A stretch of 64,000 nt of DNA, from the NCBI GenBank assembly GCA_964371255.1, contig CAYJKV010000003.1:8458-72457 (forward strand). Direction: 5' to 3'. The translations under genes were made by a program, and so were the position numbers. Below, in pieces: positions 1,039 to 20,990 of this stretch. Each line of letters starts with the position of its first letter. Positions within the stretch are counted from its first letter, which is position 1. This DNA comes from an uncultured Candidatus Saccharibacteria bacterium (GTDB taxonomy: Bacteria; Patescibacteriota; Andersenbacteria; UBA10190). A model generated the notes under the pieces. The model saw only the letters and a program-made list of their open reading frames with translations, made no database searches and was not told where the DNA came from.

Positions 1039-2040
1039 ATGAAATTATTAATCACCGGCGGGGCAGGATTTATCGGCAGTAACTTTATTCATTACTGGCT
1101 CAAAAAGCATCCCGATGATCATATCGTCAATCTGGACATCTTAACGTATGCCGGCAACCTAGCCAATGTCGATGACATTTCCCAGGACAAACGGTACCAA
1201 TTTGTTCAAGGCGACATCCTGGATAAGGACATCGTGGATGACTTGGTTAAGAGTTGTGATACGGTCGTCCACTTTGCCGCTGAATCTCATGTCGATCGTT
1301 CAATTCAAGGACCATCTGCCTTTGTGGAAACTAACATCAAGGGCACCTTTGTCTTATTGGAAGCTGCTCGCACCTATAATAAACGCTTCCACCATATCTC
1401 CACTGACGAAGTGTTTGGAGCACTGCCTTTAGGCACTAAAGATAAATTTAACGAACACACCCCGTATCAACCGAGCAGCCCCTACTCCGCGTCCAAAGCC
1501 GCCGCCGACCATCTCGTGCGGGCTTATCACGAGACATATAAAGTACCGGTAACCATCACCAACTGTTCCAACAACTTTGGTCCATATCAGCATCCGGAAA
1601 AATTTATCTCCCGCATGATTACCAATTTAATTGATGGCGAGAACATCAAGGTTTATGGCGACGGCAAATACGTGCGTGATTGGCTGCATGTTCAAGATCA
1701 CTGCCGCGCCATTGATGCCGTCCTCACCTCGGGTAAAATAGGGGAGACCTATTTAGTCGGCGGTATGACGGAGGATATCAATAATCTAGCGGTGGCCAAA
1801 CTGATACTGCAGCATATGAACTTAGGCGAAGATCGTATTGAATTCGTTAAGGACCGACTCGGTCATGATCGCCGTTACGCCGTCGACTGGACCAAGATCA
1901 AGCGTGACCTTAATTGGGAACCTGAATACACCTTCAACAAATGGCTAAAAACCACTGTTGACTGGTACCAGCAAAATGAAGATTGGTGGCGGCCGCTCAA
2001 AGAAGAAGCCGAAGCTATCTATAAAAAAAGCGGTCAGTAA
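1039..2040 (+). CDS. rfbB: dTDP-glucose 4,6-dehydratase
   Basis: N-terminal Rossmann motif TGGAGFIGSNF and catalytic YSASKAAAD (YxxxK). Its 333-aa length and overall similarity to RmlB/RfbB support the call. Confidence 0.85.
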   Translation: MKLLITGGAGFIGSNFIHYWLKKHPDDHIVNLDILTYAGNLANVDDISQDKRYQFVQGDILDKDIVDDLVKSCDTVVHFAAESHVDRSIQGPSAFVETNIKGTFVLLEAARTYNKRFHHISTDEVFGALPLGTKDKFNEHTPYQPSSPYSASKAAADHLVRAYHETYKVPVTITNCSNNFGPYQHPEKFISRMITNLIDGENIKVYGDGKYVRDWLHVQDHCRAIDAVLTSGKIGETYLVGGMTEDINNLAVAKLILQHMNLGEDRIEFVKDRLGHDRRYAVDWTKIKRDLNWEPEYTFNKWLKTTVDWYQQNEDWWRPLKEEAEAIYKKSGQ

Positions 2041-2144
2041 CTCAACATTGTAGCTGCAACCTGCCACGTCTCGCCAATAAAAAAACCAGTCCGAGATGAA
2101 CTGGGGTGCAATGAATGATTTACGCACTGGCATTTTGGCGTAGA

Positions 2145-2507
2145 CTATAATCTTCCTGCCGTTATGTACAGGATTAATATCATTTCGACCACGGCAATCA
2201 ATATCATAATCTTTCCCGCCAATATCCATTCCTCTATCATGCGTTGCCTATTTCGCCTTCTTCTCTGCCGCCTTGCCTCAGACATAATAGTAATTGCTTC
2301 CCGTTGATCAGGATACGCCGCTGCCAAATTTGGAGGATGTTTATGCCGCGGCCAAACAGACGCATGAGGCATGATTACTGCTTGATGACAATCTTGGCAA
2401 TAAACCCTCCTCCCGATAAACGCACTGTTGTGTGGCAGATAGTTGCCGCAGGGACATAGAAAGTGAACATCCTCTATAGCTTCTAGAACAGGATTCAATC
2501 TAATCAT
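2145..2507 (-). CDS. hypothetical small protein with a CxxC..CxxC zinc-ribbon-like motif and a C-terminal hydrophobic helix
   Basis: ORF with ATG start. Motifs CPCG...CQDCHQ are followed by IMILIAVVEMILILYI. No family was recognised. Confidence 0.35.
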   Translation of the reverse strand: MIRLNPVLEAIEDVHFLCPCGNYLPHNSAFIGRRVYCQDCHQAVIMPHASVWPRHKHPPNLAAAYPDQREAITIMSEARRQRRRRNRQRMIEEWILAGKIMILIAVVEMILILYITAGRL

Positions 2508-3106
2508 GGCTAGGCCCCCAATATATTATTGATAACGCCGCTAATTTAAAAGAACACCTTGCAACTGCAAATTGCTTACGTTGCACAGGATAAAAAACCC
2601 AATAATATACGTCAAGCATATTAACTTCTATTTTGTCAACATCTATTGGCATGTTTTCGTATCCATTTTCCACTCAGGACTGTAATAGCTATAACTTACG
2701 AAGCCGATTTTTCTTATATTCTCTTGTTTCTGTTCTGCGTGAATTTCACGCCATGTTACTCCTCAACTATTGTGATCAGCCAAGATTAATAAATAAATCT
2801 ATATAAAATATTATTATGTCAGCGAATTTTGACGTATTCATTTCAGAATAGAAGTACTTTCTTTGGCTGGTGCATTTACCCTTGGCGTTATCACGAACCT
2901 GAATAGTCTGGCTTGCCCAGAATGATCATGCCCCTTATAGGGCCTAAAGTCTGGTTTGCTAGCTAAAAGACGTTACTAAGCCGATTCCATAGACCCGTTG
3001 CAGGAACAATAATCTAGTAGTATAGCTGCTAGGCCATCACCAGACTCTAAAAATTCTCTTGCACTATAATTATTTTAAAAAATGAGGATCCAATAATACT
3101 CAACTT

Positions 3107-3148
3107 TTGTCATAAAGATTTGACAAAATGCTATTTGTGGCGTATAAA
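3107..3148 (+). promoter_or_regulatory. sigma70-like promoter (TTGACA-17-TATAAA) overlapped by inverted repeat TTGTCA-N8-TGACAA
   Basis: -35 TTGACA at 3120-3125, a 17-nt spacer, and -10 TATAAA at 3143-3148. A 6-bp inverted repeat at 3107-3126 overlaps the -35. The nitroreductase-fold gene starts about 25 bp downstream. Confidence 0.5.
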
Positions 3149-3172
3149 TACCTGTTTTAGCTTAAATATCAT

Positions 3173-4195
3173 ATGCTACAAAAAACCCCAAAACCAGCCG
3201 CCCAACAGCTCATATCTGCCAATACTTTAGCACGGCACATTATTCCATCTGCCATTCTGGCACCGTCCGCCCATAATACCCAACCTTGGAAATTTGAAAC
3301 TTCGTCAAACGTGATTGACATTTTTATCGACTGGAGCCGTCACTTAACTATATCCGATCCAACTCTCCGTCAACTTTATGTCAGTCTTGGTTGTGCTACG
3401 GCCAACGCGCTAAATGCTGCCAATTACTGGAACATGACAGCCGCTGTTCAATATTTCCCAGACGGTGCTGGTAAAGATAAACCGGTCGTGCGTCTAAGCT
3501 TCGCACCTGCCCACAAACCGGGAGAACACAATCAAGCGGAGGCAGACATGTTTGCGGCCATCGTCCAGCGGCACACCAACCGGTCTTTCTTTGATGAGCA
3601 GCCCCTGACTGTCGATGAACAAAAGGCTCTTAACCAGGACATTGATCAAAGCATCACCACCTTCGTCTCTGATCGTAACCAGATCGAACAAATCGCCCAA
3701 ATATCCCAAGAGGGGACTTTTAGCACTTTATCCCGCAAGGAATTTAAGGAAGAATTGTCTCATTGGGTGCGCAATAGTTGGACTTACCAGCATGACGGCA
3801 TGCCCGGTTATGCTATGGGCATTCCTGCCCCCCTTTCCCTGGTTGCTCCGATGATGGTTCGCATTGCCCCAATTCATGTTCAGGAAGCGCCCAAAACTAA
3901 ACAGCAAGTTGCCAGTTCCTCGACTCTGGCTATCTTTTCTACCGATACTGACACGCCTGTTGATCATCTAAAAGTTGGCCAGCAACTCCAGCAAGTCTGG
4001 CTCAACGCGACCGCGGCCGGATTAGCCGCCATGCCTGTGGTTGCCGCCATAGAAGCTGGCGAAGAATATCGCAACAGGTTGCGCGACATTACTCATGCCA
4101 AAACCTACCCCCAGTCTTTATTGCGTATCGGCCATTCATCTGCCACCAATCTTCGTGCCACACCCCGCCGTACGCTCGACGAATGCGTCCGCTAA
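3173..4195 (+). CDS. nitroreductase-fold flavoprotein (tandem or extended type, Acg/SagB-like size)
   Basis: Nitroreductase signature PSAHNTQPW near the N-terminus. The 340 aa is longer than classical ~200-aa nitroreductases, suggesting a tandem or extended fold. Confidence 0.6.
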   Translation: MLQKTPKPAAQQLISANTLARHIIPSAILAPSAHNTQPWKFETSSNVIDIFIDWSRHLTISDPTLRQLYVSLGCATANALNAANYWNMTAAVQYFPDGAGKDKPVVRLSFAPAHKPGEHNQAEADMFAAIVQRHTNRSFFDEQPLTVDEQKALNQDIDQSITTFVSDRNQIEQIAQISQEGTFSTLSRKEFKEELSHWVRNSWTYQHDGMPGYAMGIPAPLSLVAPMMVRIAPIHVQEAPKTKQQVASSSTLAIFSTDTDTPVDHLKVGQQLQQVWLNATAAGLAAMPVVAAIEAGEEYRNRLRDITHAKTYPQSLLRIGHSSATNLRATPRRTLDECVR

Positions 4196-4196
4196 T

Positions 4197-5306
4197 TTAG
4201 CTTTTCAAAATCTCCGCGACTTTTCGTGCCGCTTCTTCCCGCGCGGCAAAGTGAATTCGTAAGTATCCAGTTTCTTTACTGCTATCGTTAAACAATATGT
4301 TCGCCGGTGTTGTTACGATCTTTTTCTTGATCAATTCCTCCACTACTGCCATATCCGTCGGCCGGTCATGTTTCATCAGCATGTAATAAGTTGCGGGTAC
4401 GTGTAGGGGACTAAAACCATAATGAACAAACGCCTCTTCCAACACTGCTTTATTACGGAGTAACATTTCCCTCAAGTCACTGACGTATTGGTTTAGCTCC
4501 GGCAGATTATTTTTTAGCACCTCTGCCAGCACATGCTGGGACACCGTCGATCCTCCGATATACAGCGCATCGTGCCGCACTGCCATCTCTTCAATCCGTT
4601 CCGGGCTGGTTATGGCAAATCCCACGCGCCAGCCGGGAATCGCAAATGACTTTGACCAGCTGCGCACCAAGACCGTCTTTGACCAATCCATTTTCTTGTA
4701 GTCCGCGTCATCCTTCGGCGGATTGTCCCAGATAAATTCCCGATACATTTCATCCAATACCAGCAAACAATTCTTGGCCTTCGCCGCTTCGCTTAACTTC
4801 TTTAACGTCTCAAGAGACGCAGTCTGTCCCGTCGGATTAGCCGGAGAAGTAATAATGACCCCATCCACCTCATCCATTTTTTCTATCACAACATCCCAAT
4901 CAAGTTCTTCCCCAATCCTGGTTGGCAAAAAAACTATTTTATAGCCCAATGCGTTCAGCAGTATTTCATGCGCTATATAAAAAGGTTCTGGCAGCAGTAC
5001 CTTAGCACCCGGTTTAAGATCGGTTAATAAAGCGCTAGTTATTCCGGCCATCGCTCCGGCCACGGACATCACGTTTTCTACTTCAATATGCCACTCTCGT
5101 GAGTCTAAATATTGTACTAACGCCTCCCGATAAGCCGGCACGCCACGCTTGTTGTCGTACCGCGAAATTTGCTGGATCGGTACTTTATGGAGAGTCTCTA
5201 CCAAAACCTCCGGCAGATCCGTATCAATTACTCCCTGCGCTAAATCAATCGCCCCTTCCTTCTTAGCCCTTTCGGCTAATTCTCTGATCCCTAATTGTAT
5301 AGTCAT
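4197..5306 (-). CDS. class I/II PLP-dependent aminotransferase
   Basis: Motif SWSKSFAIPGWRVGFA around the PLP-lysine. Its 369-aa size and overall aminotransferase-like architecture support the call. It is convergent with the nitroreductase gene, 1 bp apart. Confidence 0.75.
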   Translation of the reverse strand: MTIQLGIRELAERAKKEGAIDLAQGVIDTDLPEVLVETLHKVPIQQISRYDNKRGVPAYREALVQYLDSREWHIEVENVMSVAGAMAGITSALLTDLKPGAKVLLPEPFYIAHEILLNALGYKIVFLPTRIGEELDWDVVIEKMDEVDGVIITSPANPTGQTASLETLKKLSEAAKAKNCLLVLDEMYREFIWDNPPKDDADYKKMDWSKTVLVRSWSKSFAIPGWRVGFAITSPERIEEMAVRHDALYIGGSTVSQHVLAEVLKNNLPELNQYVSDLREMLLRNKAVLEEAFVHYGFSPLHVPATYYMLMKHDRPTDMAVVEELIKKKIVTTPANILFNDSSKETGYLRIHFAAREEAARKVAEILKS

Positions 5307-5493
5307 ATCGTCCTATAATATACAACAATTCCAATCCTCACAAACTTAAAAATCCGCGCCGGGTCACCTTTAGGTGATCCTCTCTGCGGCGGGTAGAACC
5401 TCGCCGCGCCGGAAAAAACCCGGGTGTTAAAGAGGCGCGGTCGTTATTATCCGGGGTGGTTACGGATCAACTATCTTCCGCTATACTAAATTC

Positions 5494-6726
5494 ATGACAA
5501 AAAACCTTTTTAAAAAATTAGCATCAACACCTAACACCAACCCAGAACCTCCTAAACCGATTTTCTTTAGCTTATCTAATTCAGACGACGCTGCCCGATT
5601 GTCTGATCTCCTAGACCAGAATCCGCACATCAAGATTATTGACACTTACGACACCCAGCTCAAAGAATTGTTTACCCTGAATAATCCCGCTTTAAAAATG
5701 AACCCGCCCGAATTGGCTAAGCAGTTCGAGGCGTACCAAAAAGAACACTACCAAGACCTCGATCCGCGACAGGCAGGAAGCTGGGTTTATCTTCCCTGGC
5801 GGTTCGTGTTGCTCCACCTTCTTCAAGACAAAGATTTCCAGCAAGTCCGCACCGGCCGCAATCGCAACCTGATCACACCGGAAGAACAAGTAAAATATTA
5901 TAACAGCACCATCGGCATTGCCGGACAGTCCGTCGGCAATAGCTGCACCTTGAGCATCGTCTTAACCGGCGGCGGTAAGCATCTCAAAATTGCCGATCCG
6001 GACACACTAGAGCTGACTAACTTAAACCGCATCCGCGGCTCCATCGCCGATCTGACAGAACCGAAAGTATACATGTCCGCCCGCCAAATTTATGAACTGA
6101 ATCCCTATGCCGACATTACCATGTTCACTGACGGCATCACTGAGGATAATATCCAGGAATTTTGCGATGGGCTGGATGTGATGGTCGAAGAGATAGACAA
6201 TCTCGAAATGAAAATCCGTCTGCGTCAGGAAGCGCAAGTCAGAAAGATTCCCATCGTCATGGCCACTGACAATGGTGATAGCGGTGTGCTCGATGTCGAG
6301 CGTCACGATCTGGCAGATAATATCCCGCCTTTTCATGGACGGGGTGGTGATGACATCGCTGAACGTGTAGTTGGCAAAAAATTACCCTTGCCGGCCATCG
6401 GACAGATTATCGGCGGGGAATTGCTTGGTTATGACATTGCCGAGGAACGAACCGTACGCTCGCTGCTGGAAATTGGGCGTTCTATTCCCACCTGGCCGCA
6501 GCTCGGCTCCGCCGCCACCCTCAACGGTGCTGTTGTCGCTGTCGCCGTGCGCCGTATTCTAACGGGACAGCCCATCGTCGATGATCGTGCCAACATTTCC
6601 GTACCAGCGCTTATTGAACCTGGTTACACCGACAAAGAAACTACCGAGAAGCGCCTTAAAACCATCCACGAACTCGGCGACCAATTCAACACCATAGTCC
6701 AGCAAATCCTCAAGCATTCAAAATAA
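5494..6726 (+). CDS. ThiF/MoeB/E1-like adenylyltransferase-fold protein with ~130-aa N-terminal extension
   Basis: Rossmann and E1 signature IGIAGQSVGNSCTLSIVLTGGGKHLKIADPDTLELTNLNR (GxGxxG ... DxDxxExxNLNR). No CxxC zinc motif is present. Confidence 0.65.
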   Translation: MTKNLFKKLASTPNTNPEPPKPIFFSLSNSDDAARLSDLLDQNPHIKIIDTYDTQLKELFTLNNPALKMNPPELAKQFEAYQKEHYQDLDPRQAGSWVYLPWRFVLLHLLQDKDFQQVRTGRNRNLITPEEQVKYYNSTIGIAGQSVGNSCTLSIVLTGGGKHLKIADPDTLELTNLNRIRGSIADLTEPKVYMSARQIYELNPYADITMFTDGITEDNIQEFCDGLDVMVEEIDNLEMKIRLRQEAQVRKIPIVMATDNGDSGVLDVERHDLADNIPPFHGRGGDDIAERVVGKKLPLPAIGQIIGGELLGYDIAEERTVRSLLEIGRSIPTWPQLGSAATLNGAVVAVAVRRILTGQPIVDDRANISVPALIEPGYTDKETTEKRLKTIHELGDQFNTIVQQILKHSK

Positions 6727-6804
6727 TTGCATCGTCCGTTGTCTATCATGATAGCCTCCAATCATGTGAGGGAATAACATTAAGAAGATTTCGCGTCTTC
6801 CCTC

Positions 6805-6892
6805 TGCCTCGCCCCGCATAGCCCCGCCAACGGCGGGGCGACGTGGGGATAAGGGGCCTGCCTGCCGGTAGGCAGGGATAGGGGGGGTCTGC
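6805..6892. other. GC-rich double hairpin in an otherwise AT-moderate intergenic region (terminator or REP-like)
   Basis: Hairpins GCCCCGCCAACGGCGGGGC (6821-6839) and CCTGCCTGCCGGTAGGCAGG (6857-6876) lie between the ThiF-like stop and the NUDIX start. Confidence 0.45.
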
Positions 6893-6926
6893 AAACCAAC
6901 ACTTTCTAACTTAATCGATCGCATCA

Positions 6927-7409
6927 ATGAAAACAGCCAAAGAAAACAATGCGTTATTTGAAGTCTCCTTAAAATTCATCATCAAGGATGAAACTGATAA
7001 AATATTACTGCTTAAAATGCCCAAAACAGGGCCTATGGGTGGGTATTATGATTTGCCGGGTGGAAGAATAAAGGAACATGAAAAATCAAAACCATTCAGT
7101 GAAATTATTTCTCGAGAACTTACAGAGGAGCTCGGCACAAAGCCACGGATTACTTTTAATCAAATTCCCGTTGCTGCAGGACGGCACACCTATCCCAGAC
7201 CATCCTCGGGTGACGATGGACATATTTTCTGGGTGTTCTTTGAAGGCCTATTTCAAGGAGGAGAGATAGAGATATCCCCCGAACACGCTGGCTATAATTG
7301 GATTAGTTTAGGTAAGCACAATCTTGATAAATACTTTGTGCGAGGCCCATGGGAAGGAATGTATAACTATTTTTATAAGAGATTTCCACCTAAATTAATC
7401 CAAGATTAA
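6927..7409 (+). CDS. NUDIX hydrolase
   Basis: Nudix box GGRIKEHEKSKPFSEIISRELTEELG (Gx5Ex7REuxEExGu). Confidence 0.75.
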   Translation: MKTAKENNALFEVSLKFIIKDETDKILLLKMPKTGPMGGYYDLPGGRIKEHEKSKPFSEIISRELTEELGTKPRITFNQIPVAAGRHTYPRPSSGDDGHIFWVFFEGLFQGGEIEISPEHAGYNWISLGKHNLDKYFVRGPWEGMYNYFYKRFPPKLIQD

Positions 7410-7511
7410 TTTTTAAATTCAGACTATTAAGAACGAGTTGGGAAGTTATAATCACCCGACAACTATTTGCGATCAAACCAAACATACCAAGCAACTGTTC
7501 CTAATGTGAAA

Positions 7512-8222
7512 CTAGTCATATTCCTTATCTGATTTCATTATGACGATTGCTTCATCAAGCAACTTTTGAAAATTTCTATTTTCCCTCCAAGCTTGTCGCA
7601 ACTTATTTCTTAGTATTTGGTGCTTGGGGTAACCCCTGTCCTCAGATAAAATCACAGCATCGAATTCAGGTTCATTCAACAGAATCGTTAGCGCTTCTTT
7701 CAAATTATCGCTTTGCTTCATATTTAATCCGTTCTTCTTCAGATAATTTCTATAGTAATGCAGAAATTGAAGATGCATGATTTCATGGCAAATTGTTGTA
7801 ATCGAATCCGGGAGGCTACGCCACAACGAAACCATGAACCAATTTCCCTTTTCGTTATATGGGCACATGTAGCCTGTCGTCCAAAAACAATTAAACTTCT
7901 CAGAACAAATCGGCTTACCTGTCATTTTCTCTAAAGCTTGCCAGTACTGTTGTTCCACCATCTTCCAGGCGACTTCTAGTGATCTTATTTCTTCTTTAAT
8001 TATCAAATCCCTGTATTTACGTTTCTGATCACCTTGCAGATACTCCCTGATTATTTCTTCAGCGTCTGTAAAACTGGCTTTTAACACCTGCGATAATAAA
8101 TTCTTTGGGATATGGCCGACTTCGTCCTTCCAGTCCAGTCCCCAGAGATTTTTATCTTTAGCAATTAAAACCCAGCTCCAAGCGTCCTTCACGATATCAT
8201 ATTGAAATTTTATTTGTGACAT
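7512..8222 (-). CDS. hypothetical protein with HExxH motif (possible zinc metallopeptidase)
   Basis: ORF with ICHEIMHLQFLHYY (HExxH). The start is taken at ATG 8222 (MSQIKFQYD). The longer TTG-initiated version to 8336 would run into repeat copy A. No family was recognised. Confidence 0.45.
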   Translation of the reverse strand: MSQIKFQYDIVKDAWSWVLIAKDKNLWGLDWKDEVGHIPKNLLSQVLKASFTDAEEIIREYLQGDQKRKYRDLIIKEEIRSLEVAWKMVEQQYWQALEKMTGKPICSEKFNCFWTTGYMCPYNEKGNWFMVSLWRSLPDSITTICHEIMHLQFLHYYRNYLKKNGLNMKQSDNLKEALTILLNEPEFDAVILSEDRGYPKHQILRNKLRQAWRENRNFQKLLDEAIVIMKSDKEYD

Positions 8223-8281
8223 ATAAATTTCTATCAATATGTACCCTGTTAACCGTGTATCCCAACAGTAGCACCTATTTT

Positions 8282-8477
8282 CTCTTGATATACTATAAAA
8301 CCACATAATCCCATGGCTCCGTCGTCCCAATAACAATCACCGCGACTCGCTATTCAACCTGCCTATCTACCCTCCCCGCCCCTAAAAAATGGGGGAGTAG
8401 ACCTAGCCTGCCAGCAGCTCACTACTGACGTTAATCAAACGCTAACGTCCTTCTCTGTTGTTAAAGCCCGATGTCAG
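8282..8477. repeat. Direct repeat copy A (~196 bp), a degenerate duplicate of the 5' end of the downstream adenylating-enzyme gene (pseudo-fragment)
   Basis: Nearly identical to 11200-11396. Relative to copy B the start codon is lost (ATA versus ATG). An A-run of 6 versus 8 causes a frameshift, and the reading frame terminates within 7 codons. Confidence 0.85.
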
Positions 8478-8721
8478 CCGGCGAGGGAGAGGTTGGGCTC
8501 ACCGAAACAATTGTCAACCAACACTGACAAAACCATTTATTAATAATTGTCAAAAATCAGTTCTAACACTATGATTACACGTTGTATCTACTGTTGGTTC
8601 TTTAGACAAAAATCCCACATACAAGACCTTGTTGAAGAGCGCATAACGCTAATCGCCAGCAATGTTGCCAGCGGCTACTTCACAATGTACGTGTGTTAGG
8701 TATAGAAAGGAGGTTAATACG

Positions 8722-8880
8722 ATGAAGACAGAGCAAGTCAAGGGCATGCAAGAGAAACAGACTTACGGATTCAGCGGAAAACAAGAATCTGCCAAGATTT
8801 CTCTGAAAGCCACCAAAGTTCATGTCCAAAAGAGAGGAATGAATTCTGGCATCTCAGGCGGAAGTTCCCAATGTTGCTGA
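8722..8880 (+). CDS. candidate RiPP precursor peptide (52 aa, Lys-rich leader, C-terminal ...GISGGSSQCC)
   Basis: AAGGAGG sits 8 nt upstream of ATG 8722. The ORF track's longer 8662 start lacks an RBS. The peptide lies immediately upstream of an RRE-radical-SAM-SPASM gene and is followed by a hairpin terminator. Confidence 0.5.
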   Translation: MKTEQVKGMQEKQTYGFSGKQESAKISLKATKVHVQKRGMNSGISGGSSQCC

Positions 8881-8892
8881 ACAGATAAACTC

Positions 8893-8936
8893 GCGTGGCA
8901 TGTAATTGCTTTTTTGCATCATGCCACGCCTTTTTT
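8893..8936 (+). terminator. intrinsic terminator/attenuator between the precursor peptide and the radical SAM gene
   Basis: Stem GCGTGGCATG...CATGCCACGC is followed by CTTTTTT. Confidence 0.6.
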
Positions 8937-8950
8937 AAAAGGAGAACAGA

Positions 8951-10285
8951 ATGTCACCAACATATGTGAGGTTAGCTGATAGTGCCATATTCAAATCACG
9001 CTATGAGCAGAGGTACCTGATCAACACCTCTTGTCGTAACCGGGAACGCATTCTAATTGAAGGAGGGGCTGAACAAGTATTGCTTTTTCTATTTTCAGGA
9101 AAAAGTATCAGTGGCGCATGTACACATTTTTGTCTGGATTCAGAACAACTGACTGCCTATATACAAGGGCTGGTAGCCGAAAATGTTGTTGCTTGGTGCA
9201 CCAGTGCGATTGACTCCACAGCAAAGTGCTACAACACAGAGCCGCCACTCGATAGTATAAACATTCTTCTCACAAACGCGTGCAATCTTCATTGTGTACA
9301 CTGTGGCTTCTCGAGTGGCAAACCAATCGTGGGGGAACTAACTGGAGATGAGTGGATTAGTGTTCTTCAGGAAGCAGAACAGCTCGGTGTTTTTGAGGTC
9401 AACGTTTCCGGAGGAGAGCCAACGCTTCATAGAAATTTTATTCAGATAGCAAAACATATTTCTTCGATCCCATGCTTCAATGCCAATCTGAATACTAATG
9501 GTGTATCATTACCACCCCAGTACATTGAAACCATCGCGCAGGCCTTCACTAGTGTCCAAATTAGTATTGACGATGTTGTAGCATCAAAACATGACAAGTT
9601 TCGTGGTCGCAGAGGAAGTTTCAAGCGGTCAATAGAAACAATAAGACAGCTCGTCAATACAGGCGTCGAAACGAATATCGGTTTTACGTTAACCGCTGAT
9701 AATATTACAGCCCTAGATGATATTGTTGAGTTAGCGGAAAACTTAGGTGTCACTGTGCTGAACATCGGTCTAGTTGCCAATCTTGGTCGTGCTCACGATA
9801 ACCTACTACTAAAGGAGTTTGGAACAGGGCCGTGTCATAACAGTCCATTCATGGACCAAGTGTACCAGAGGATAAAGAAGTTATCGGTTAGTTCATCAAA
9901 TGTCCAGATTCTCCTGCCGTTTCGCATCCCTGACAAAAACCGGCCCGCGCCATTACAAGATAAGCGATACATTTGTGACGGCGATAACACGCAGGTTCTC
10001 TACATAACAGCGAATGGAAATATGATGCCTTGTGACAAGTTACCAGTTGAGGCGTTCTCTTACGGCAATGTGCGGCAGAACACGATACTGGGTACTTGGC
10101 AGTCTGATCGGATGAAAAAGTTCAAACTAATGAGTCCTAATGAGCTTCCCAAATGTAAAAAGTGCCCCGATTTAAGATTGTGTGGCGGAGCTTGTGTAGC
10201 ACGTGCTTATCAAGAGGGTGGTAGTCTGGATTCCTCAGATTGGATATCATGCGTTATTGCACAAAAGGTTTCTCAAGACTACTAG
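8951..10285 (+). CDS. radical SAM / SPASM-domain peptide-modifying enzyme with N-terminal PqqD-like RRE
   Basis: Cx3Cx2C motif NACNLHCVHCGF. The C-terminal Cys-rich SPASM region includes CDGD...MPCDKL...CKKCPDLRLCGGACVARAY. The first ~90 aa have a PqqD/RRE-like pattern. AAGGAG lies 7 nt upstream of the ATG. Confidence 0.8.
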   Translation: MSPTYVRLADSAIFKSRYEQRYLINTSCRNRERILIEGGAEQVLLFLFSGKSISGACTHFCLDSEQLTAYIQGLVAENVVAWCTSAIDSTAKCYNTEPPLDSINILLTNACNLHCVHCGFSSGKPIVGELTGDEWISVLQEAEQLGVFEVNVSGGEPTLHRNFIQIAKHISSIPCFNANLNTNGVSLPPQYIETIAQAFTSVQISIDDVVASKHDKFRGRRGSFKRSIETIRQLVNTGVETNIGFTLTADNITALDDIVELAENLGVTVLNIGLVANLGRAHDNLLLKEFGTGPCHNSPFMDQVYQRIKKLSVSSSNVQILLPFRIPDKNRPAPLQDKRYICDGDNTQVLYITANGNMMPCDKLPVEAFSYGNVRQNTILGTWQSDRMKKFKLMSPNELPKCKKCPDLRLCGGACVARAYQEGGSLDSSDWISCVIAQKVSQDY

Positions 10286-10360
10286 GCACCAGGAGAACGA
10301 TCTATCTCCTGTGCCTTTTTTATTTGTACTATCGCAGTATTATTATGTAGTTTTATTAGT

Positions 10361-11110
10361 ATGATGGATAAGCCTTGGTGGAAAACAGCCTTTAACGAAT
10401 CGTATCTTACTGCTTTTGATGACTACTACTCTGCAGTAAAAGGGGAAAAAGAGGCAGTTTTTCTTATTCAGGCATTGTCGATTAAGAAAGGCGCCAGTGT
10501 CCTTGATCTTGCATGCGGGCAAGGAAGGCACGCTATTGCACTTGCACAGAATGGCATGAAAGTAACTGGTCTTGATACTTCGGCTATTCTTTTAAACGAA
10601 GCTGGGAAAAGAGCGAAAATGGAAGGAGTGACAATCTCGTTTGTGAATGGAGACATGCGTTCATATCATGATACTAATAAATTTGAGGCTGTGCTTGTTC
10701 TGGGTAATTCGTTTGGATATTTTAGCGACAAAGATAACGAGAATGTATTATCAAATATCTCCACTTCTTTACAAGTTGGTGGTTGGTTGGTCTTAGATTT
10801 ACCAAATACACCTGGTATGCTCCGCCGGAAAATGACGGGGAAACAAATTCAGAAAAACGTGAACACAACAGTGACAACGCGCACGGTTAATTTCAACCCG
10901 GAAACATTTCGTGCAGATTTACAGTGGGAAATTTATCAAAACACAAAAAAGGTCTCATTCAATGGAAATTTGCGTTTGTACACGCCACCAGAGATTAATC
11001 ATCTTCTTAGCGAGCGAGGCTTGGTTATCAGAAAAACGTATGGTTCATTCAGTGATGAAACATACAATATTGATACAAAGCGTTACCTGGTAATAGCGCA
11101 AAAGATATAA
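10361..11110 (+). CDS. class I SAM-dependent methyltransferase
   Basis: Motif I VLDLACGQGRHAIALAQNGMKVTGLD, in a 249-aa protein. Confidence 0.75.
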   Translation: MMDKPWWKTAFNESYLTAFDDYYSAVKGEKEAVFLIQALSIKKGASVLDLACGQGRHAIALAQNGMKVTGLDTSAILLNEAGKRAKMEGVTISFVNGDMRSYHDTNKFEAVLVLGNSFGYFSDKDNENVLSNISTSLQVGGWLVLDLPNTPGMLRRKMTGKQIQKNVNTTVTTRTVNFNPETFRADLQWEIYQNTKKVSFNGNLRLYTPPEINHLLSERGLVIRKTYGSFSDETYNIDTKRYLVIAQKI

Positions 11111-11199
11111 TTAATATCACAAATAAGTTTATATTCTAAGGAAATTAGTCTTTGAGAACAGTTGAGCATTGTGGGCGCCATTCAGTAGCCTCAACCTCC

Positions 11200-11396
11200 C
11201 TCTTGATATACTATAAAACCATATGATCCCCTGGCTCCGTCGTCCCAATAACAATCACCGCGACTCGTTATTCAACCTGCCTCTCTACCCTCCAGCCCCT
11301 AAAAAAAATGGGGGAGTCGATCTAGCCTCCCAGCAGCTCACTACTGACGTTAATCAAATCTTAACGTCCTTCTCTGTTGTTAAAGCTCGCCGTCAG
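11200..11396. repeat. Direct repeat copy B (~197 bp), the intact 5' end of the PaaK-like gene
   Basis: Matches 8282-8477 with a few substitutions and a 2-nt A-run difference. It contains the ATG 11223 start and an open frame continuing into the 540-aa ORF. Confidence 0.85.
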
Positions 11397-12845
11397 TTAT
11401 CTGACGTAAGTGAGGAGGAATGGCAAGGCAGGGGAGAGAAGAGGGCGTTGGCCCTTTTCCGAGCAGCCGCTGAATATGTTCCCGCCTACAAAGATTTTCT
11501 TAAGAAGAATAAGGTTAACCCGGATAAAATTAAAACCGTCAGTGACTTCAAACAGGTGCCCTTCGTCGATAAAGAAAACTACCTGCGTGTTTACCCCTTA
11601 CAACAGCTTTGTTGGTATGGTGACTTGTCTTTCTCTCAAATAATTTCTTTTAGCTCTGGTTCATCTGGACAGCCATTGTTTTGGCCTCGCGGTCAAATAC
11701 TAGACACAGAAACTACCCTTGAACATGAATTATTCCTGTCATCGTTTTTTAATATTGATACAAAGTCCACCCTATTGCTCAATTGCTTTTCCATGGGTAT
11801 GTATGTCGCCGGTAGCATCACATTAAATAGCGTCCTTAATTTAGGCCGAAAAGGTTATCCCATAACTGTCGTTACTCCCGGAATAGACATGGAAGATATC
11901 ATCCGAGTCATCCCTGAACTAAATCCTCATTTTAACCAAATCATCATTGCTGGTTATCCACCTTTTGTAAAAGATATCCTCGATGAAGGCATCCGAGCAG
12001 GAATTAACTGGCAGGACATTTCCATTAAATTCATCTTAGCTGGTGAAGGATATAGTGAAACTTGGCGAAAGCACATATCCAAAATTGTTAATGACGGGAG
12101 CCCTCTCTACGATTTCATAAATCTTTACGGATCAGCTGACGCAGCTGTGTTAGCTCATGAAACCCCTACTTCTATTATAACGCGATCGCGACTGGCGGGA
12201 GATGATAAAGTTCGAGAAAAACTCTTTGGTAGTTCACTGTTACCATCCTTATTACAGTATTATCCTGAGCATAAATTCTTTGAGCCTGTAAACAACGAAT
12301 TGATCTTCTCTACCACCGGCGGCGTCCCTCTTGTCCGCTATAATATTCACGACAAGGGAGGAATATTAAGCAAAAAGGACATAACAAGTAATATCCCGGA
12401 ACTGGATGAGTATCATACGGAATTAAAACGCCAAAACCATCTCTGGAATTTGCCCTTCGTGTATGTTTTTGGTAAAAGCGACTGCACTATAATGTTGTAT
12501 GGTCTTAATATTTACCCGGATAACATAAAAACTGCCTTGGAAAGTGAAGCCTTAAGAAAAACAACTACTGGTCGGTTTACTATGACATCTGAATTCAACG
12601 CCAATATGGATCAATATTTGCTCATTAATGTTGAGCTTGCCCCCGCTACAGAGCCTTCTCAAGCCTTGACCAGTGATATTAGCGACGCGATTGTATCAAC
12701 TCTTAAGAAAATGAATCGTGAGTACCAAAAATTATTTAACTCCATTGGCAACAAAGCCCTACCCACAATACGTCTGCACAAAAAAGGGGAAGGTAATCTG
12801 TTCTCACGAGCCGGCAAACAAAAATGGGTGAGAAATAATCCATAA
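11223..12845 (+). CDS. phenylacetate-CoA ligase / coenzyme F390 synthetase-family adenylate-forming enzyme (CapK-like)
   Basis: AMP-binding motif SFSSGSSGQPLFWP (PaaK-family SSGTTG-like). The N-terminal LRAAAEYVPAYKDFL region is typical of the PaaK family. The protein is 540 aa. Confidence 0.7.
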   Translation: MIPWLRRPNNNHRDSLFNLPLYPPAPKKNGGVDLASQQLTTDVNQILTSFSVVKARRQLSDVSEEEWQGRGEKRALALFRAAAEYVPAYKDFLKKNKVNPDKIKTVSDFKQVPFVDKENYLRVYPLQQLCWYGDLSFSQIISFSSGSSGQPLFWPRGQILDTETTLEHELFLSSFFNIDTKSTLLLNCFSMGMYVAGSITLNSVLNLGRKGYPITVVTPGIDMEDIIRVIPELNPHFNQIIIAGYPPFVKDILDEGIRAGINWQDISIKFILAGEGYSETWRKHISKIVNDGSPLYDFINLYGSADAAVLAHETPTSIITRSRLAGDDKVREKLFGSSLLPSLLQYYPEHKFFEPVNNELIFSTTGGVPLVRYNIHDKGGILSKKDITSNIPELDEYHTELKRQNHLWNLPFVYVFGKSDCTIMLYGLNIYPDNIKTALESEALRKTTTGRFTMTSEFNANMDQYLLINVELAPATEPSQALTSDISDAIVSTLKKMNREYQKLFNSIGNKALPTIRLHKKGEGNLFSRAGKQKWVRNNP

Positions 12846-12953
12846 TTTCAGGTTATTTATCATCGTTCTCAATTGAAGCCCATTTCAATCCCCGATATGC
12901 CAAACACACCTGCCCTGAAATCATGCCCTTTGCGCCACAATTATCTTGCCATA

Positions 12954-12974
12954 TTGTCAATAACGGTTGACAAA
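12954..12974. promoter_or_regulatory. palindromic motif TTGTCAATAACGGTTGACAAA in the long intergenic region upstream of the 922-aa gene
   Basis: 7-bp inverted arms TTGTCAA/TTGACAA. It closely matches ATGTCAATAACCATTGACAAAA at 16523-16544. Related TTGTCAATAAATTGTTACAA and TTGTAACAA palindromes lie nearby at 13085-13180. Confidence 0.45.
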
Positions 12975-13215
12975 ACGCCCCAAAACTCGCTGTAGATCGT
13001 CGCTATATACCCCATAAATCAAGCCGTCTTAGGCCCTTTCAAGACAGAATCCTGCACTGTTTAACCATGTTCGTATATTGTTTGTCAATAAATTGTTACA
13101 AATTGCCTATATATACCGATTGACGTAAACCTATTCTCCTGCCTATTGTAACAATACTCAGTTTTCTGCTCGTCCTTTCCAACTAAATTTCCTCTGTTTC
13201 GAAAGGAGCTACCCA

Positions 13216-15984: not shown

Positions 15985-16039
15985 TCCATCGTACTCTTTA
16001 GGAGACAGATTTATGGCCGCATGTAACATTGCGGCTTTT

Positions 16040-16564: not shown

Positions 16565-16615
16565 TAAAAGCCCAAAGTAAGCGAAATTAATTATTTAAAT
16601 AAATCTGTGAAAACA

Positions 16616-17512: not shown

Positions 17513-17729
17513 GCGTACCGATTAAATTTATTACCGCCAATGTTACAGATAGCAATTGCATTCTTGGCTTGAACTAGTAACTATCGTAACCACTTTCTAC
17601 GGTTGCTCTCTTAAACAATCAACAAACCAATCTAGAAGTATGTCCGTACTATCAGTGCGGTACAAAATGTCATCCCCATGCATATTAGTAAAACCTATTA
17701 CCCGCTTGCTATACTTAAAAAGGAAGTCT

Positions 17730-18707
17730 ATGGATACCATACAAAAACCTGTAATAAAAAAACGTTCTGCAATTATTGATGCCGCCATTCTTGATTTGCT
17801 TGAGTACAGAAAAAGTTGCGATCAGCAACTATATTATTCAATAGATGAAAACATCAGGTTCTTTGAGGCTGCTCGTTCGTTGCCTCGTTATATTTTTTGG
17901 CTCCTTACAGAATACTCTAAAATCAACGGACATCGTATCTTAGAGCTTTCAGATTTTCATTTGCGTGAGGGTGAATGGGAAAAGATGTTGCTTGGTCAAC
18001 TGCTTACCCTGGAAAGAAAAAACATTCCAGACCTGATCGGACCATTAAGGAAACAGCTATCAAAAGAAATCCGAACAATAACTCAGCAAAAAAATGAACC
18101 AATCGTAGTAATTAATATGGGCTGTGGCGGAATGGAAACCGAGCGAAGAATAGCCTTAGGGCTATTCAAAAAACCTCTTACCCAACCCATCATCTTTATT
18201 GGTATCGATTCTTCCCCAGCTGCCATCAAGGTTGCTCAGCAAAATTTGCGTAGTTTTAGTAAGGAATTTACGCAATTGGAAAGCCTTACCCCTGATGTCA
18301 TTCATTCAATCAAAAATATCCAAACAGACAAACCTGTTCAATTTAAAGTATTTATTGGCGATGCCCTAAATATTCATAATTATGCCGAGCCTCAAACAAT
18401 CGACATAATTTTTCATTCCAAGTTTCATCATCATCTGTCAGATCAAGACAAAAGACGCTTTGACGATATGATAAGAAAGACTGCTTGTTGTGCAATCGAA
18501 TTCGATGATTATCGGGGTGCCTATTTACCTATACTCTCTATCCTAACCGGCTGGAATAAGCCCATTCTACTAAATGGCGCTGTTATTAGCAGTCTGCGTG
18601 ATCCAACTAAAGAGGATATTAAAAACTACAAAAAAGAAGGATGGATAACCAAAATCTATCCGTTAAAAGGATTTTTGAAAATACATCACTCGTCCCAAAC
18701 CTGTTAA
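17730..18707 (+). CDS. putative class I SAM-dependent methyltransferase-fold protein
   Basis: Gly-rich motif VINMGCGGMETERRIALGL followed by IFIGIDSSPAAIKVAQQNL. The start is taken at ATG 17730, which has AGGAAG upstream. The track's TTG 17556 gives a longer version. Confidence 0.4.
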   Translation: MDTIQKPVIKKRSAIIDAAILDLLEYRKSCDQQLYYSIDENIRFFEAARSLPRYIFWLLTEYSKINGHRILELSDFHLREGEWEKMLLGQLLTLERKNIPDLIGPLRKQLSKEIRTITQQKNEPIVVINMGCGGMETERRIALGLFKKPLTQPIIFIGIDSSPAAIKVAQQNLRSFSKEFTQLESLTPDVIHSIKNIQTDKPVQFKVFIGDALNIHNYAEPQTIDIIFHSKFHHHLSDQDKRRFDDMIRKTACCAIEFDDYRGAYLPILSILTGWNKPILLNGAVISSLRDPTKEDIKNYKKEGWITKIYPLKGFLKIHHSSQTC

Positions 18708-18737: not shown

Positions 18738-20990
18738 ATGTACGCAGAAACAGTCTTCCGTCTTATTATTCTTTCCATAACTATAATTCTCGGCTTTCTT
18801 GCATATCGCAGGAATTCTCGTCATGCAACCAATACACTTCTGGCACTACTAACCGTCCTAATTTTTTTATGGGGTGTTAGTAATGAAATATCACTTTATT
18901 CAACAACTACCACAGGCACATTGTTCTGGATCCGCATGACGATGTTTTTTGCGGTACCAACAGCTGTCCTCTTTTTTGTTTTTATGCATACGTTTCCTCG
19001 TGCCAGCCTCGCGATGTCACGTCAACTAATGGCACTCGTTCTTCTAGTGACTGGCAGTGTTATGTCACTATCGTTATCACCCTGGTTGTTCACCACTATT
19101 GCCGATGGCGTGGGAGCAAACGCGAAACCTGTGCCAGGGTTTGGCATTATAATATTTGCCTTAACAGTCACCGCCGCAAATCTAACTGCTATCTACCTTT
19201 TGATTGTAAAAAACTTTAAACTCTCTGGCGTCTTTAAGCTCCAAGCCCGTTATCTCTTGCTTGGTACAGCCATTACTCTGAGTTTAATCATGGGTCTCGT
19301 TTTCTTCCCAGTTGTCTTGCTCCGCTTCACTGCTTTTGTGCCCTATCAGAGTGAGCTCATGCTACCTTTTGTCGCCCTCACCGCCTACGCCATTGTCCGT
19401 TACCGCCTCATGGACATCCGCGCTGCCATCGCTCGCAGTCTTTCCTTTTCCATTCTGCTCGGCGCCTTCTTCGCCATCTACGGCGCTATTCTCATCTTCG
19501 CTGTACCACGTTTAGCTGACTGGTTAGGTATCCGTGAAGGGTTTATCGCCGCTGTCGGCGCCCTTCTCTCTGTTTTGCTTGCCCGCTATATCCAAGAAGC
19601 CCTGCGCCGTCTCACCGACCGTTTCCTTTTCCAAAACCAAATTGATTACCGCCGCGCTCTCGTTGAAACCAGCAAGGAACTATCTACCACCATCCACATC
19701 GAAGACGTCACCAGGACTGTCCTGGATATTATGGAGAAGGTTATCCGTACTAAGAAAACCATCATTTTTCTTCAGGAAAACAAAGGCCACAATTTTACCC
19801 CTTATGCCAACCGCGGCGCCAGTTCCATCAAAGTCTCTATCCCCAAGGAGCATGTCCTAGTTCGCCATATTCAACACAACATGGGCCTGCTTGTTAAGGA
19901 TGAATTGGCTCATGAGCGCGAGCAGGAACGCGACGAATCCCACGCAGCGGAAATTAAGCAAGTGGAGCAAACTTTTGTCTGGCTCGACATGGCTGTCGTG
20001 TTACCCCTGTACGTTAACAAACAACTGACCGGCCTGATCGTTCTGGGCGACAAAAAATCCGGCACTCCTTACATGCAGGATGACCTAAACTTTCTAGCTG
20101 CCTTATCTCCCCAGGCTGCCACCGCCCTCGAAAATGCCCGTCTCTACCAGGAATCTCTGGCTTTCGGGGAAAAATTGAAATCTGAAGTTAAGCGCGCCAC
20201 TCACGAACTGGAAATTGCCAACGCCCAGTTGCGCGACTTAGACAAGGCCAAGAGTGAATTCTTGAGCATCGCTAGCCACCAGTTGTACACCCCCATGACC
20301 GCCCTCCGGGGCTACCTGTCCATGTTGCGGGAAGGGGACTATGGCGCTACTCCATCCAAACAACAACCCATCATTAAAATTCTGGAAACCAGCTCTACCC
20401 GCCTCATTAATCTAATCAAGAATTTACTCGATGTGTCGCGCATTGAAAGCGGCCGTCTTGAGCTCAATCTTGAGTCGCTGGACTTTAGTCACATGGTTAA
20501 AGAGCTTGTCCAAGATCTCATGCCTAACGCCCTTAACAAAAAAGTTAAGCTGCAATACTACCAGCCTGCAGAACAATTGCCCCATGTCGTGGCCGACCAG
20601 GAACGCGTTCGCCAGGTCATCCTCAACATCGTTGACAATGCCATTAAATACACAGACCAAGGTCGCATTGATGTCCGTGTGCAGCAAACGGACCACACCA
20701 TCACCCTTACGGTCAATGACACGGGCCGCGGCATGACGCCGGACGAAATGACCAAGCTCTTCACCAAATTCACCCGTGTCGGCGGTGCCTCCAAATACCG
20801 CAAAGAGGGGACTGGCCTTGGCCTCTACGTTGCCAAGCAAATCATCCGCGAGCATCATGGCGACATCGAAATAACGAGTCCCGGCCTGAACCACGGCTCT
20901 ACTTTCTATGTTCATCTGCCCATCGAAGGCTCGCCCAATGCCCTCACCGCCGGCAAGAAAGTATCCGTCGAAATTAAAGCGGGGAAATAA
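18738..20990 (+). CDS. sensor histidine kinase (multi-TM N-terminal sensor, GAF, HisKA, HATPase_c)
   Basis: About 6 N-terminal TM helices. A GAF-like region ends at ...LENARLYQE. The H-box is LSIASHQLYTPMTAL. N/G1/G2 boxes NIVDNAIKYT, DTGRGM and GTGLGL are present. Confidence 0.85.
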   Translation: MYAETVFRLIILSITIILGFLAYRRNSRHATNTLLALLTVLIFLWGVSNEISLYSTTTTGTLFWIRMTMFFAVPTAVLFFVFMHTFPRASLAMSRQLMALVLLVTGSVMSLSLSPWLFTTIADGVGANAKPVPGFGIIIFALTVTAANLTAIYLLIVKNFKLSGVFKLQARYLLLGTAITLSLIMGLVFFPVVLLRFTAFVPYQSELMLPFVALTAYAIVRYRLMDIRAAIARSLSFSILLGAFFAIYGAILIFAVPRLADWLGIREGFIAAVGALLSVLLARYIQEALRRLTDRFLFQNQIDYRRALVETSKELSTTIHIEDVTRTVLDIMEKVIRTKKTIIFLQENKGHNFTPYANRGASSIKVSIPKEHVLVRHIQHNMGLLVKDELAHEREQERDESHAAEIKQVEQTFVWLDMAVVLPLYVNKQLTGLIVLGDKKSGTPYMQDDLNFLAALSPQAATALENARLYQESLAFGEKLKSEVKRATHELEIANAQLRDLDKAKSEFLSIASHQLYTPMTALRGYLSMLREGDYGATPSKQQPIIKILETSSTRLINLIKNLLDVSRIESGRLELNLESLDFSHMVKELVQDLMPNALNKKVKLQYYQPAEQLPHVVADQERVRQVILNIVDNAIKYTDQGRIDVRVQQTDHTITLTVNDTGRGMTPDEMTKLFTKFTRVGGASKYRKEGTGLGLYVAKQIIREHHGDIEITSPGLNHGSTFYVHLPIEGSPNALTAGKKVSVEIKAGK

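Follow-up and report, generated by a model that had tools for sequence, protein, structure and literature searches.

A conserved patescibacterial module of a ThiF-like enzyme, an Acg-type flavin-dependent oxidase and a PaaK-like ligase, with predicted oxazolone-type chemistry and an inserted peptide-modifying cassette

Introduction

Whether an E1-like adenylating enzyme and a nitroreductase-fold flavoprotein that lie beside a radical S-adenosylmethionine (rSAM) cassette belong to one peptide pathway is the question raised by a 64,000-nt stretch of contig CAYJKV010000003.1 (positions 8,458 to 72,457), from an uncultured Candidatus Saccharibacteria bacterium placed by GTDB among the Andersenbacteria of the Patescibacteriota. 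This whole stretch (64 kb) is hereafter called the window. The original prediction, made from the sequence alone, had regarded such a pair of proteins as a hallmark of the thiazole/oxazole-modified microcin (TOMM) pathways. As no YcaO cyclodehydratase was seen, it had left the choice between an undescribed peptide or small-molecule tailoring set and chance adjacency. Every gene in its inventory was found at the position given there.

The stretch is a conserved module of the candidate phyla radiation (CPR) with an unrelated peptide-modifying cassette inserted in its middle. Of the earlier alternatives, a conserved set, of predicted small-molecule type, was borne out, and the peptide cassette proved to be separate from it. 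Judged from likeness to characterised enzymes, the product of the module would be an oxazolone-type heterocycle, with a rough probability of 0.55.

Conserved neighbourhood of the ThiF-like gene

A genome scan with one genome per species resulted in 273 related stretches, and the best 80 of these, non-redundant, were used in the comparison (compared loci and stretches are labelled by L-numbers, e.g. L009, L016, L089, L179). All open reading frames (ORFs) at most 7 kb from the gene for the ThiF-like adenylating enzyme were clustered de novo, with 80 or 81 loci as the denominator of the counts. The best 80 loci with a ThiF-like gene were all of Patescibacteria and were spread over many classes.

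The most frequent co-conserved neighbour was the gene for a PaaK-like ligase, which was near the ThiF-like gene in 67 of the 81 loci and within 300 bp of it in 57, mostly just upstream. The gene for a flavin-dependent oxidase (FDO) was near it in 60 of the 81 loci, adjacent in 44 and mostly just downstream, and a HisKA_7TM (seven-transmembrane, 7TM) histidine kinase gene was near it in 48/81, directly after FDO in 29/80. The order PaaK-ThiF-FDO-kinase was present in 36 of the 80 loci, and a response regulator sometimes joins the operon. Immediately before PaaK, a deaminating enzyme was encoded in 36/80 loci, i.e. an aromatic ammonia-lyase, an ELFV dehydrogenase or a class I aminotransferase; the best match of the lyase was the flexirubin tyrosine ammonia-lyase FlxA, and that of the dehydrogenase the tryptophan dehydrogenase ScyB. 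The operon was tight around ThiF and FDO: in more than 40 loci the genes were a few bases apart, distances in the canonical operon stayed below 50 bp, and the adjacency was kept across CPR classes at 42–47% identity of the ThiF-like protein.

These neighbourhood statistics over 80 loci therefore identify, with high confidence, the real module as the aminotransferase, the PaaK-like ligase, the ThiF-like cyclase and the FDO. Co-conservation was thus found for FDO, ThiF and PaaK across the Patescibacteria loci, and the PaaK-like enzyme, which the original prediction had grouped with the rSAM cassette, is present as described but has the E1-like/FDO pair as its partner by neighbourhood. In the clade of the window the order is FDO, aminotransferase (minus strand) and ThiF, followed by PaaK, a methyltransferase-like gene and a 7TM-GAF kinase. 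In the window one gene lies between FDO and ThiF; in L016 the distance between ThiF and PaaK is 9 bp, with the kinase next.

No acyltransferase family was detected among the conserved neighbours in the 80 loci, or by Pfam near the module of the window, and tblastn queries with a presumed TrzA neighbour from Rhodococcus and a ThiF-linked GNAT protein from Streptomyces gave nothing in the window and one weak match in 88 loci. The canonical operon contained no conserved small precursor ORF of at least 40 amino acids, a search that shorter or fast-evolving peptides would escape, and no conserved ubiquitin-like ORF.

Split halves of an Rv1355c-type fusion

The ThiF/E1-like adenylating enzyme of TrzS/OxzB (Rv1355c) type (5494..6726, plus strand, 410 amino acids) carried the motif D168-x-D170-x-x-E-x-x-N-L-N-R179. 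Its Pfam ThiF match began at residue 122, which leaves a conserved N-terminal domain of ca. 120 amino acids; motif and extension had both been predicted, the extension at a slightly greater length of 130 residues. Among 17 NCBIfam matches the Rv1355c family was on top (NF005901, 313 bits, positions 9–349 of the 722-position model) and Ocin_ThiF_like was not among them, whereas MoeB/ThiF models reached 42–66 bits against cut-offs of 152–450. The proposed distinction between Ocin_ThiF_like and MoeB/ThiF was hence resolved in favour of neither. No MoaD/ThiS-like partner ending in GG was found near ThiF across the 80 loci, as GG ends were present only on antisense junk ORFs. Being below these cut-offs, with no MoaD/ThiS-like ORF nearby, the pair lies outside the housekeeping MoeB/ThiF class, and in comparison with MoeB, ThiF and TcdA enzymes the ThiF-like protein has the additional N-terminal domain and lacks a sulfur-carrier partner.

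With an Rv1355c-family fusion protein encoded on a Rhodococcus plasmid, identity was 36% over 327 amino acids, N-terminal extension included (E-value 3e-58), and a C-terminal TWPQLG region was in common with the Rv1355c family. Residues D168, D170, N176, N178, R179, K191 and D235 were invariant in 12 family members. D235 (in DVMVEEIDN) aligned with D212 (in DLVIEECDS) of the Rhodococcus fusion, and from this alignment, the numbering and the MoeB DCTDN motif we infer that it probably corresponds to D217 of TrzS. The closest solved fold was that of AclA (PDB 9egb). The ThiF-like protein is predicted to be an ATP-dependent cyclase. A stand-alone TrzS-type ThiF gene was also found on a Streptomyces plasmid (NZ_CP109451.1, L170 positions 4830–6628); its product is 36–38% identical to that of the window, the gene overlaps a GNAT gene by 4 nt and has no FDO nearby, and it may represent another pathway variant.

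The FDO gene (3173..4195, plus strand) encodes an Acg-type flavin-dependent oxidase of nitroreductase fold with 340 amino acids and the motif APSAHNTQPW. The protein scored 257.6 bits with the NCBIfam Acg-family model NF047509, above the cut-off of 199, and aligned also to positions 366–652, the C-terminal half, of the Rv1355c model (101.9 bits). Its NCBIfam matches were limited to the Acg family and ThiF-nitroreductase fusion models, and no SagB-type model was among them, so the predicted SagB-like dehydrogenase is an Acg-family protein instead. The full-length alignment was with MsAcg (PDB 2ymv), Mycobacterium smegmatis Acg being the sole solved relative. Identity with the FDO half of the Rhodococcus fusion was 22% (E-value 1e-11), and at the positions of R540 and Q651 of TrzS the BLAST alignment to the Rhodococcus paralogue was ambiguous.

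Since the ThiF-like protein covers positions 9–349 and the FDO positions 366–652 of one and the same model, the two represent split halves of a known fusion. The functional pairing of E1-like and nitroreductase-fold proteins, as considered in the original prediction, was thereby substantiated: the two make up a single protein in the Rv1355c/TrzS family and are encoded side by side in CPR relatives. The FDO is predicted to be the desaturase partner of the ThiF-like cyclase. Its subtype is located directly after ThiF in L021, L052, L057, L032 and L077, and directly before ThiF in L015 and L018. The likeness of this subtype to Acg exceeds that of the FDO in the canonical CPR operon, for which (L036) fusion models gave 220 and 189 bits versus 150 for Acg.

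Resemblance to TOMM machinery (McbBCD, SagBCD) is confined to an E1-like fold together with a nitroreductase-fold flavoprotein, and to a precursor-like peptide and an HExxH protein in the vicinity. Unlike TOMM systems, the window has no YcaO, its flavoprotein is of Acg and not SagB type, and its E1-like protein is of Rv1355c type with adenylation motifs kept. The absence of YcaO, already suspected, holds for the 64-kb window that was searched: PF02624 was missing from the 36 longest ORFs scanned by Pfam, and tblastn of the window with a SagB-YcaO fusion from a related contig gave a best E-value of 0.14. The TOMM/SagB assignment is ruled out by the profile hidden Markov models, which place the pair in the Rv1355c and Acg families.

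Aminotransferase, PaaK-like ligase and downstream genes

The class I pyridoxal phosphate-dependent aminotransferase (4197..5306, minus strand, 369 amino acids; PF00155, 177 bits) is convergent with the FDO gene and divergent from the ThiF-like gene. It reached no NCBIfam cut-off, and its nearest PDB entries were aspartate and aromatic aminotransferases. In most loci of the Andersenbacteria-like clade (L009, L013–L018, L067) it flanks ThiF on the opposite strand, and co-directional aminotransferases were found just before PaaK in L029, L060 and L086. The aminotransferase is the form that the amino-acid deaminating enzyme of the module takes in this clade.

The PaaK-family adenylate-forming ligase (11223..12845, plus strand, 540 amino acids) contains the ANL P-loop and the C-terminal catalytic lysine. 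Its predicted structure (predicted local distance difference test score 88.4) matched the PaaK family, including ClxA and NatL2, although with TIGR02155 the protein reached 57.8 bits against a cut-off of 646, and it had no Pfam AMP-binding match.

Further downstream on the plus strand lie genes for a methyltransferase-like protein (17556..18707, 383 amino acids, weak methyltransferase Pfam matches) and a HisKA_7TM-GAF sensor histidine kinase (18738..20990, 750 amino acids; PF16927, GAF, HisKA, HATPase_c). Orthologues of the former were located directly after PaaK in L179 (45% identity) and before the histidine kinase in L177 (58%), and the kinase had a 77% identical orthologue in L177. The pair at 17556–20990 is a conserved downstream partner of the PaaK-like gene in the clade (L177, L179). 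In the window a second insertion (13216–17512) parts the PaaK-like gene from the methyltransferase-like gene. It comprises a 922-amino-acid protein with an internally repeated lectin/laminin-G-like region, a 116-amino-acid ORF and a 301-amino-acid ORF, for which no clear family was found.

Comparison with known systems and proposed chemistry

Rv1355c is TrzS, which together with the acyltransferase TrzA gives N-acyl tryptazolones (PMC12856293, PMC10404671, bioRxiv 10.1101/2020.06.11.147165). Its ThiF domain performs the ATP-dependent cyclisation of an N-acyl amino acid and its FDO domain an O2-dependent desaturation (PMC12856293, PMC10404671), and OxzAB of Pseudoalteromonas rubra and TyzACB of Mycobacterium tuberculosis work in the same way (PMC10404671, PMC12856293). 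According to a 2025 review, no ThiF-like enzyme other than OxzB is known to have a small molecule as its substrate (PMC12596934). As in these oxazolone synthetases (PMC10404671, PMC12856293), where the two are paired or fused, a ThiF-like protein, here a predicted ATP-dependent cyclase, is found in the window together with an Acg-fold FDO of about 340 amino acids, and like them the module would be a small-molecule system without a carrier protein. Unlike OxzAB, TyzACB and TrzAS, the window has no N-acyltransferase; a PaaK-family ligase and a deaminating enzyme are co-conserved instead, and a 7TM histidine kinase follows. The hosts differ as well, being Patescibacteria, and the genes are separate, with an island breaking up the set in this genome. 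Nor is the FDO of the window closest to the fusion-type FDO-A of the oxazolone synthetases, the Acg (FDO-B-like) model being the nearer one.

For the ligase, NatL2/BomJ of nataxazole and ClxA/ClxC of closoxazole biosynthesis provide a precedent, as they adenylate aryl acids and hand them to an O or N nucleophile without coenzyme A (CoA) before heterocyclisation (PMC7204872, PMC9400959). The PaaK-like ligase of the window is about 100 residues longer than NatL2 and ClxA, with extensions at both ends and ca. 20% identity, and its partner cyclase is ThiF-like, not an amidohydrolase as in the closoxazole and nataxazole systems.

In the proposed pathway, an aromatic-type amino acid would be deaminated to an aryl acid, in this clade by the aminotransferase and in other lineages by an ammonia-lyase or a Trp/Phe-type dehydrogenase. 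The PaaK-like ligase would adenylate the aryl acid and then either couple it with an amino acid at the amino group, in the manner of ClxA, or form a CoA thioester, thereby taking the place of the N-acyltransferase OxzA, TyzA or TrzA. Cyclisation by the ThiF-like enzyme would be followed by desaturation of the C-alpha/C-beta bond by the FDO. That the ligase, instead of an acyltransferase, supplies an N-acyl (probably aryl-acyl) amino acid is held with less confidence than the oxazolone-type chemistry as such. Because a 7TM histidine kinase follows downstream, the arrangement suggests that the product of the module is sensed or regulated.

Several observations weigh against oxazolone-type chemistry. 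It is predicted from characterised enzymes at identities of 36% and 22%. The defining N-acyltransferase is absent, its substitution by the ligase being deduced, and the three kinds of upstream enzymes would yield chemically different acids (2-oxo acids or acrylic acids). The Acg model gives the FDO of the window a higher score than the Rv1355c model does, and Grigg et al. hold Acg-type FDO-B enzymes to be unrelated to oxazolones. The four module genes are spread over 9.7 kb and both strands in the window; a PaaK-like gene is lacking within 10 kb in the closest relative, as is an FDO near the module in L016. Known FDO desaturation needs O2, and many CPR bacteria are anaerobic. Finally, 6 of the 80 loci (ca. 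8%), and additionally L179 and L177, have an rSAM cassette no more than 2 kb away from a module gene.

If the proposed chemistry is true, a small-molecule operon next to a sensor kinase would exist in CPR bacteria, which is unexpected in small genomes with little biosynthetic capacity, and would point to possible sensing by episymbionts or signalling to hosts and kin. [quoted passage not shown] The labels "MoeB/ThiF", "nitroreductase" and "phenylacetate-CoA ligase" are corrected on hundreds of CPR genes, and E1-like and nitroreductase pairs are not to be taken as TOMM by default. The widest version, in which the operon is a self-contained CPR signalling system with an aromatic-derived, autoinducer-like oxazolone-type heterocycle, made by the ligase route and sensed by the 7TM kinase, and with the gap between ThiF and PaaK as a hotspot of peptide cassettes in one clade, is speculative and improbable as a whole. 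In the literature on CPR together with ThiF/nitroreductase/PaaK or oxazolone biosynthesis, no description of this operon was found.

Among the alternatives, salvage or catabolism of aromatic acids survives best and is still unlikely. The PaaK-like protein would then be an aryl-CoA ligase working with the aminotransferase, lyase or dehydrogenase, and ThiF and FDO would perform a non-oxazolone or unrelated step. PaaK with an aminotransferase is a known pair for the interconversion of aryl acids and amino acids, and the best sequence and fold matches of the ligase were indeed phenylacetate-CoA ligases, but all its scores are far under the PaaK cut-offs (e.g. 57.8 versus 646 bits). The pair of ammonia-lyase and PaaK-like ligase, with the lyase immediately upstream in 18 CPR loci, follows the logic of flexirubin starter formation by FlxA and FlxY (594 and 38.7 bits in NCBIfam, both below cut-off). 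Unlike in flexirubin clusters, polyketide or fatty-acid-synthase genes are missing, and the window itself has an aminotransferase, not a lyase. The CPR lyases carry Ser-His or Gly-His at what we take to be the positions of the substrate-selectivity switch, presumably a histidase-like pattern. The tight ThiF/FDO operon with gaps of a few bases argues for one pathway, and the neighbour survey revealed no conserved downstream catabolic genes (PaaABCDE, IOR) near the module, which also counts against salvage. Oxazolone-type chemistry remains the preferred reading.

Variable island between ThiF and PaaK

The genes located at 6927–11110, i.e. those of an HExxH protein, a 52-amino-acid precursor, an rSAM/SPASM protein and a methyltransferase, in addition to a NUDIX gene, are a variable island between ThiF and PaaK. 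The first island gene encodes a NUDIX hydrolase (6927..7409, plus strand, 160 amino acids; PF00293, 33 bits), which was not co-conserved with the module, as only one weak and distant tblastn match was obtained among the 80 loci; non-homologous NUDIX genes are present at similar places in L179, L177, L042 and L063. A second, longer NUDIX protein (280 amino acids) is encoded at 22745–23587, ca. 16 kb downstream, by VanW-like and D-Ala-D-Ala ligase genes.

The HExxH protein (7512..8222, minus strand, 236 amino acids, CHEIMH), a putative metallopeptidase, belongs to a CPR-wide family and matched no Pfam or NCBIfam model. The 236-amino-acid form fits its homologues of about 231 amino acids, of which 192 were found at 53–89% identity (53–65% across CPR classes). 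In Moranbacteria (L171) and Parcubacteria (L175, L176), that is in two of the three lineages sampled, the gene comes directly after a Cys/Gly-rich ORF of 50–54 amino acids and an rSAM gene, the exception being L173/L174. The suggestion of a leader peptidase is consistent with this family travelling with peptide and rSAM cassettes, although the peptidase role remains putative. Homology to the HExxH proteins by rSAM genes in L083 and L089 was rejected, since nothing beyond the motif was in common.

The precursor-like ORF (8722..8880, plus strand, 52 amino acids) ends in GISGGSSQCC, is preceded by the ribosome-binding site AAAGGAGG, and is also called as a gene in L001; analogous Cys/Gly-rich peptides adjoin related cassettes. 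Between it and the rSAM gene, a hairpin with a T-run (8893–8936) has a 10-bp GC-rich stem GCGTGGCATG…CATGCCACGC and a 17-nt loop, and resembles the attenuators frequent after precursor genes of peptides that are made on ribosomes and modified after translation (RiPPs). The radical SAM/SPASM peptide maturase (8951..10285, plus strand, 444 amino acids; PF04055, PF13186) had its best NCBIfam matches, none of which reached the cut-off, in peptide maturases. Next comes a class I SAM methyltransferase (10361..11110, plus strand, 249 amino acids, Pfam methyltransferase families). The nearest and sole close relative of the rSAM maturase, in L089 (47% identity), is likewise directly followed by a 40% identical methyltransferase, with no ThiF, FDO or PaaK nearby. 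Because the rSAM-methyltransferase pair and the HExxH-peptide-rSAM sets recur elsewhere, the four genes are to be read as a putative RiPP-like cassette in its own right. L089 (3795–10171) itself appears as a hybrid YcaO/rSAM RiPP cluster in a CPR contig: the rSAM-methyltransferase pair lies by a 611-amino-acid SagB-YcaO fusion, a DUF2268 HExxH protease, a second HExxH protein and a 50-amino-acid Cys-rich peptide (…GPGGGSQCNGQCGGK). A true SagB-YcaO fusion thus stands by a homologous rSAM cassette, without ThiF or FDO.

The cassette is bracketed by recombination scars. A 196-nt direct repeat of ca. 90% identity (8282–8477 versus 11200–11396) encloses the precursor, rSAM and methyltransferase genes. 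Its right copy is the true start of the PaaK-like gene (23 nt upstream and the first 174 nt), and its left copy (8282..8477, plus strand) is a decayed duplicate of the 5′-end (23 nt upstream and 58 codons), in which ATG is changed to ATA and a 1-nt frameshift and stops in translation are present. A structured RNA in the repeat was rejected, with no Rfam match over 2000–21500 and a fold z-score of −1.0. In L179/L180, where PaaK is 63% identical, the gap between ThiF and PaaK holds genes for a major facilitator superfamily protein, NUDIX, a small HExxH-like protein, methyltransferases, a 42-amino-acid ORF, rSAM and a methyltransferase, in an order that matches the window, but with just 24–27% identity to its genes, and the cassettes are therefore analogous rather than orthologous. 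The PaaK 5′-segment occurs three times in L179 (2960–3230, 4198–4388, 7960–8182), in each case followed by inserted genes, and the peptide encoded by one of the copies is identical to the first 59 residues of the PaaK of the window. Identity between the PaaK genes of the window and L179 was 82–93% over 11190–11366 and 50–70% beyond, which marks a recombination tract. The 5′-segment with ca. 23–40 nt upstream looks like a recombination anchor for cassette exchange, and the gap between ThiF and PaaK appears to be a recombination hotspot with exchange at this conserved anchor. A simple recent insertion unique to this genome is weakened as an explanation by the analogous island of L179 and its three PaaK 5′-copies.

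In the closest relative, which has a ThiF-like protein of 89% identity, FDO, aminotransferase and ThiF are retained along with the synteny upstream, without the island and the rSAM cassette, and lipase, helicase and restriction-modification genes lie downstream of ThiF instead. As an rSAM gene was also absent from 73 of the 80 loci, co-conservation of the rSAM cassette with the module was not found, and by gene content the cassette would be dispensable for the module and independent of it.

A peptide pathway, in which E1-like protein, FDO and PaaK-like ligase act on the 52-amino-acid precursor, with azole-like chemistry without YcaO or a C-terminal modification and the HExxH protein as leader peptidase, is accordingly a less probable alternative than salvage. 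It draws on rSAM, HExxH and small-peptide cassettes that adjoin the module in L015, L042, L045, L078, L080 and L083 (the loci with rSAM genes near it), on the order ThiF, NUDIX, HExxH-like, small ORF, rSAM, methyltransferase and PaaK, which L179 shares with the window, and on L177, where PaaK, NUDIX, rSAM and kinase genes occur together. The frequency of rSAM genes near the module is above naive expectation, so that the module may be loosely coupled to peptides, and a functional link between cassette peptides and the module may exist in some lineages. Against it stand the family assignments (Acg and Rv1355c, not SagB or Ocin_ThiF_like), the many loci without rSAM, canonical gaps below 50 bp that hold no precursor ORF, the analogous rather than orthologous cassettes, the scars that bracket the cassette, and the true rSAM-methyltransferase homologue, which is accompanied by a SagB-YcaO fusion of its own and not by the module.

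That housekeeping genes (for a MoeB/ThiF-type sulfur-carrier activator, for AspC and for a generic nitroreductase) lie together by chance, in keeping with "molybdopterin/thiamine biosynthesis adenylyltransferase" labels on homologues and an aminotransferase that lacks a specific assignment, is hardly credible given the MoeB/ThiF scores of 42–66 bits against cut-offs of 152–450 (Rv1355c 313), the lack of a GG-ended MoaD/ThiS-like ORF nearby in any locus, the adjacency kept across CPR classes at 42–47% ThiF identity, and the fusion of ThiF-like protein and FDO in Actinobacteria.

Two loci show further arrangements of rSAM genes with the module. In L080 (9944–15973) PaaK-ThiF is in tandem duplicate, and the two copies are separated by genes for an rSAM protein with a Cys/Pro-rich C-terminus and for an HExxH protein. 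In the Andersenbacteria-related L015 (12876–20901), FDO, ThiF and aminotransferase have a run of four consecutive radical-SAM-like genes downstream.

Promoter region of the FDO gene

A promoter-like site with an overlapping palindrome was recognised upstream of the FDO gene (3105..3148, plus strand). It consists of TTGACA (3120–3125), a spacer of 17 nt and TATAAA (3143–3148), with 11 of 12 consensus matches, the sole mismatch being the A at position 6 of TATAAA. The palindrome TTTTGTCA-N8-TGACAAAA (3105–3128) overlaps the −35 box, occurs once in the window and was absent from all of 100 shuffles. The strong consensus promoter overlapped by a palindrome that had been reported earlier is thus present, short of a perfect consensus. 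The block down to the ATG is nearly identical in L009, while DNA farther upstream is unalignable, and on account of this phylogenetic footprint it probably represents the promoter and operator of the FDO gene. Between rmlB and this promoter, a 120-amino-acid ORF on the minus strand (2145–2507) contains CxxC…CxxC motifs and a C-terminal hydrophobic helix, and has a 45% identical match in L010.

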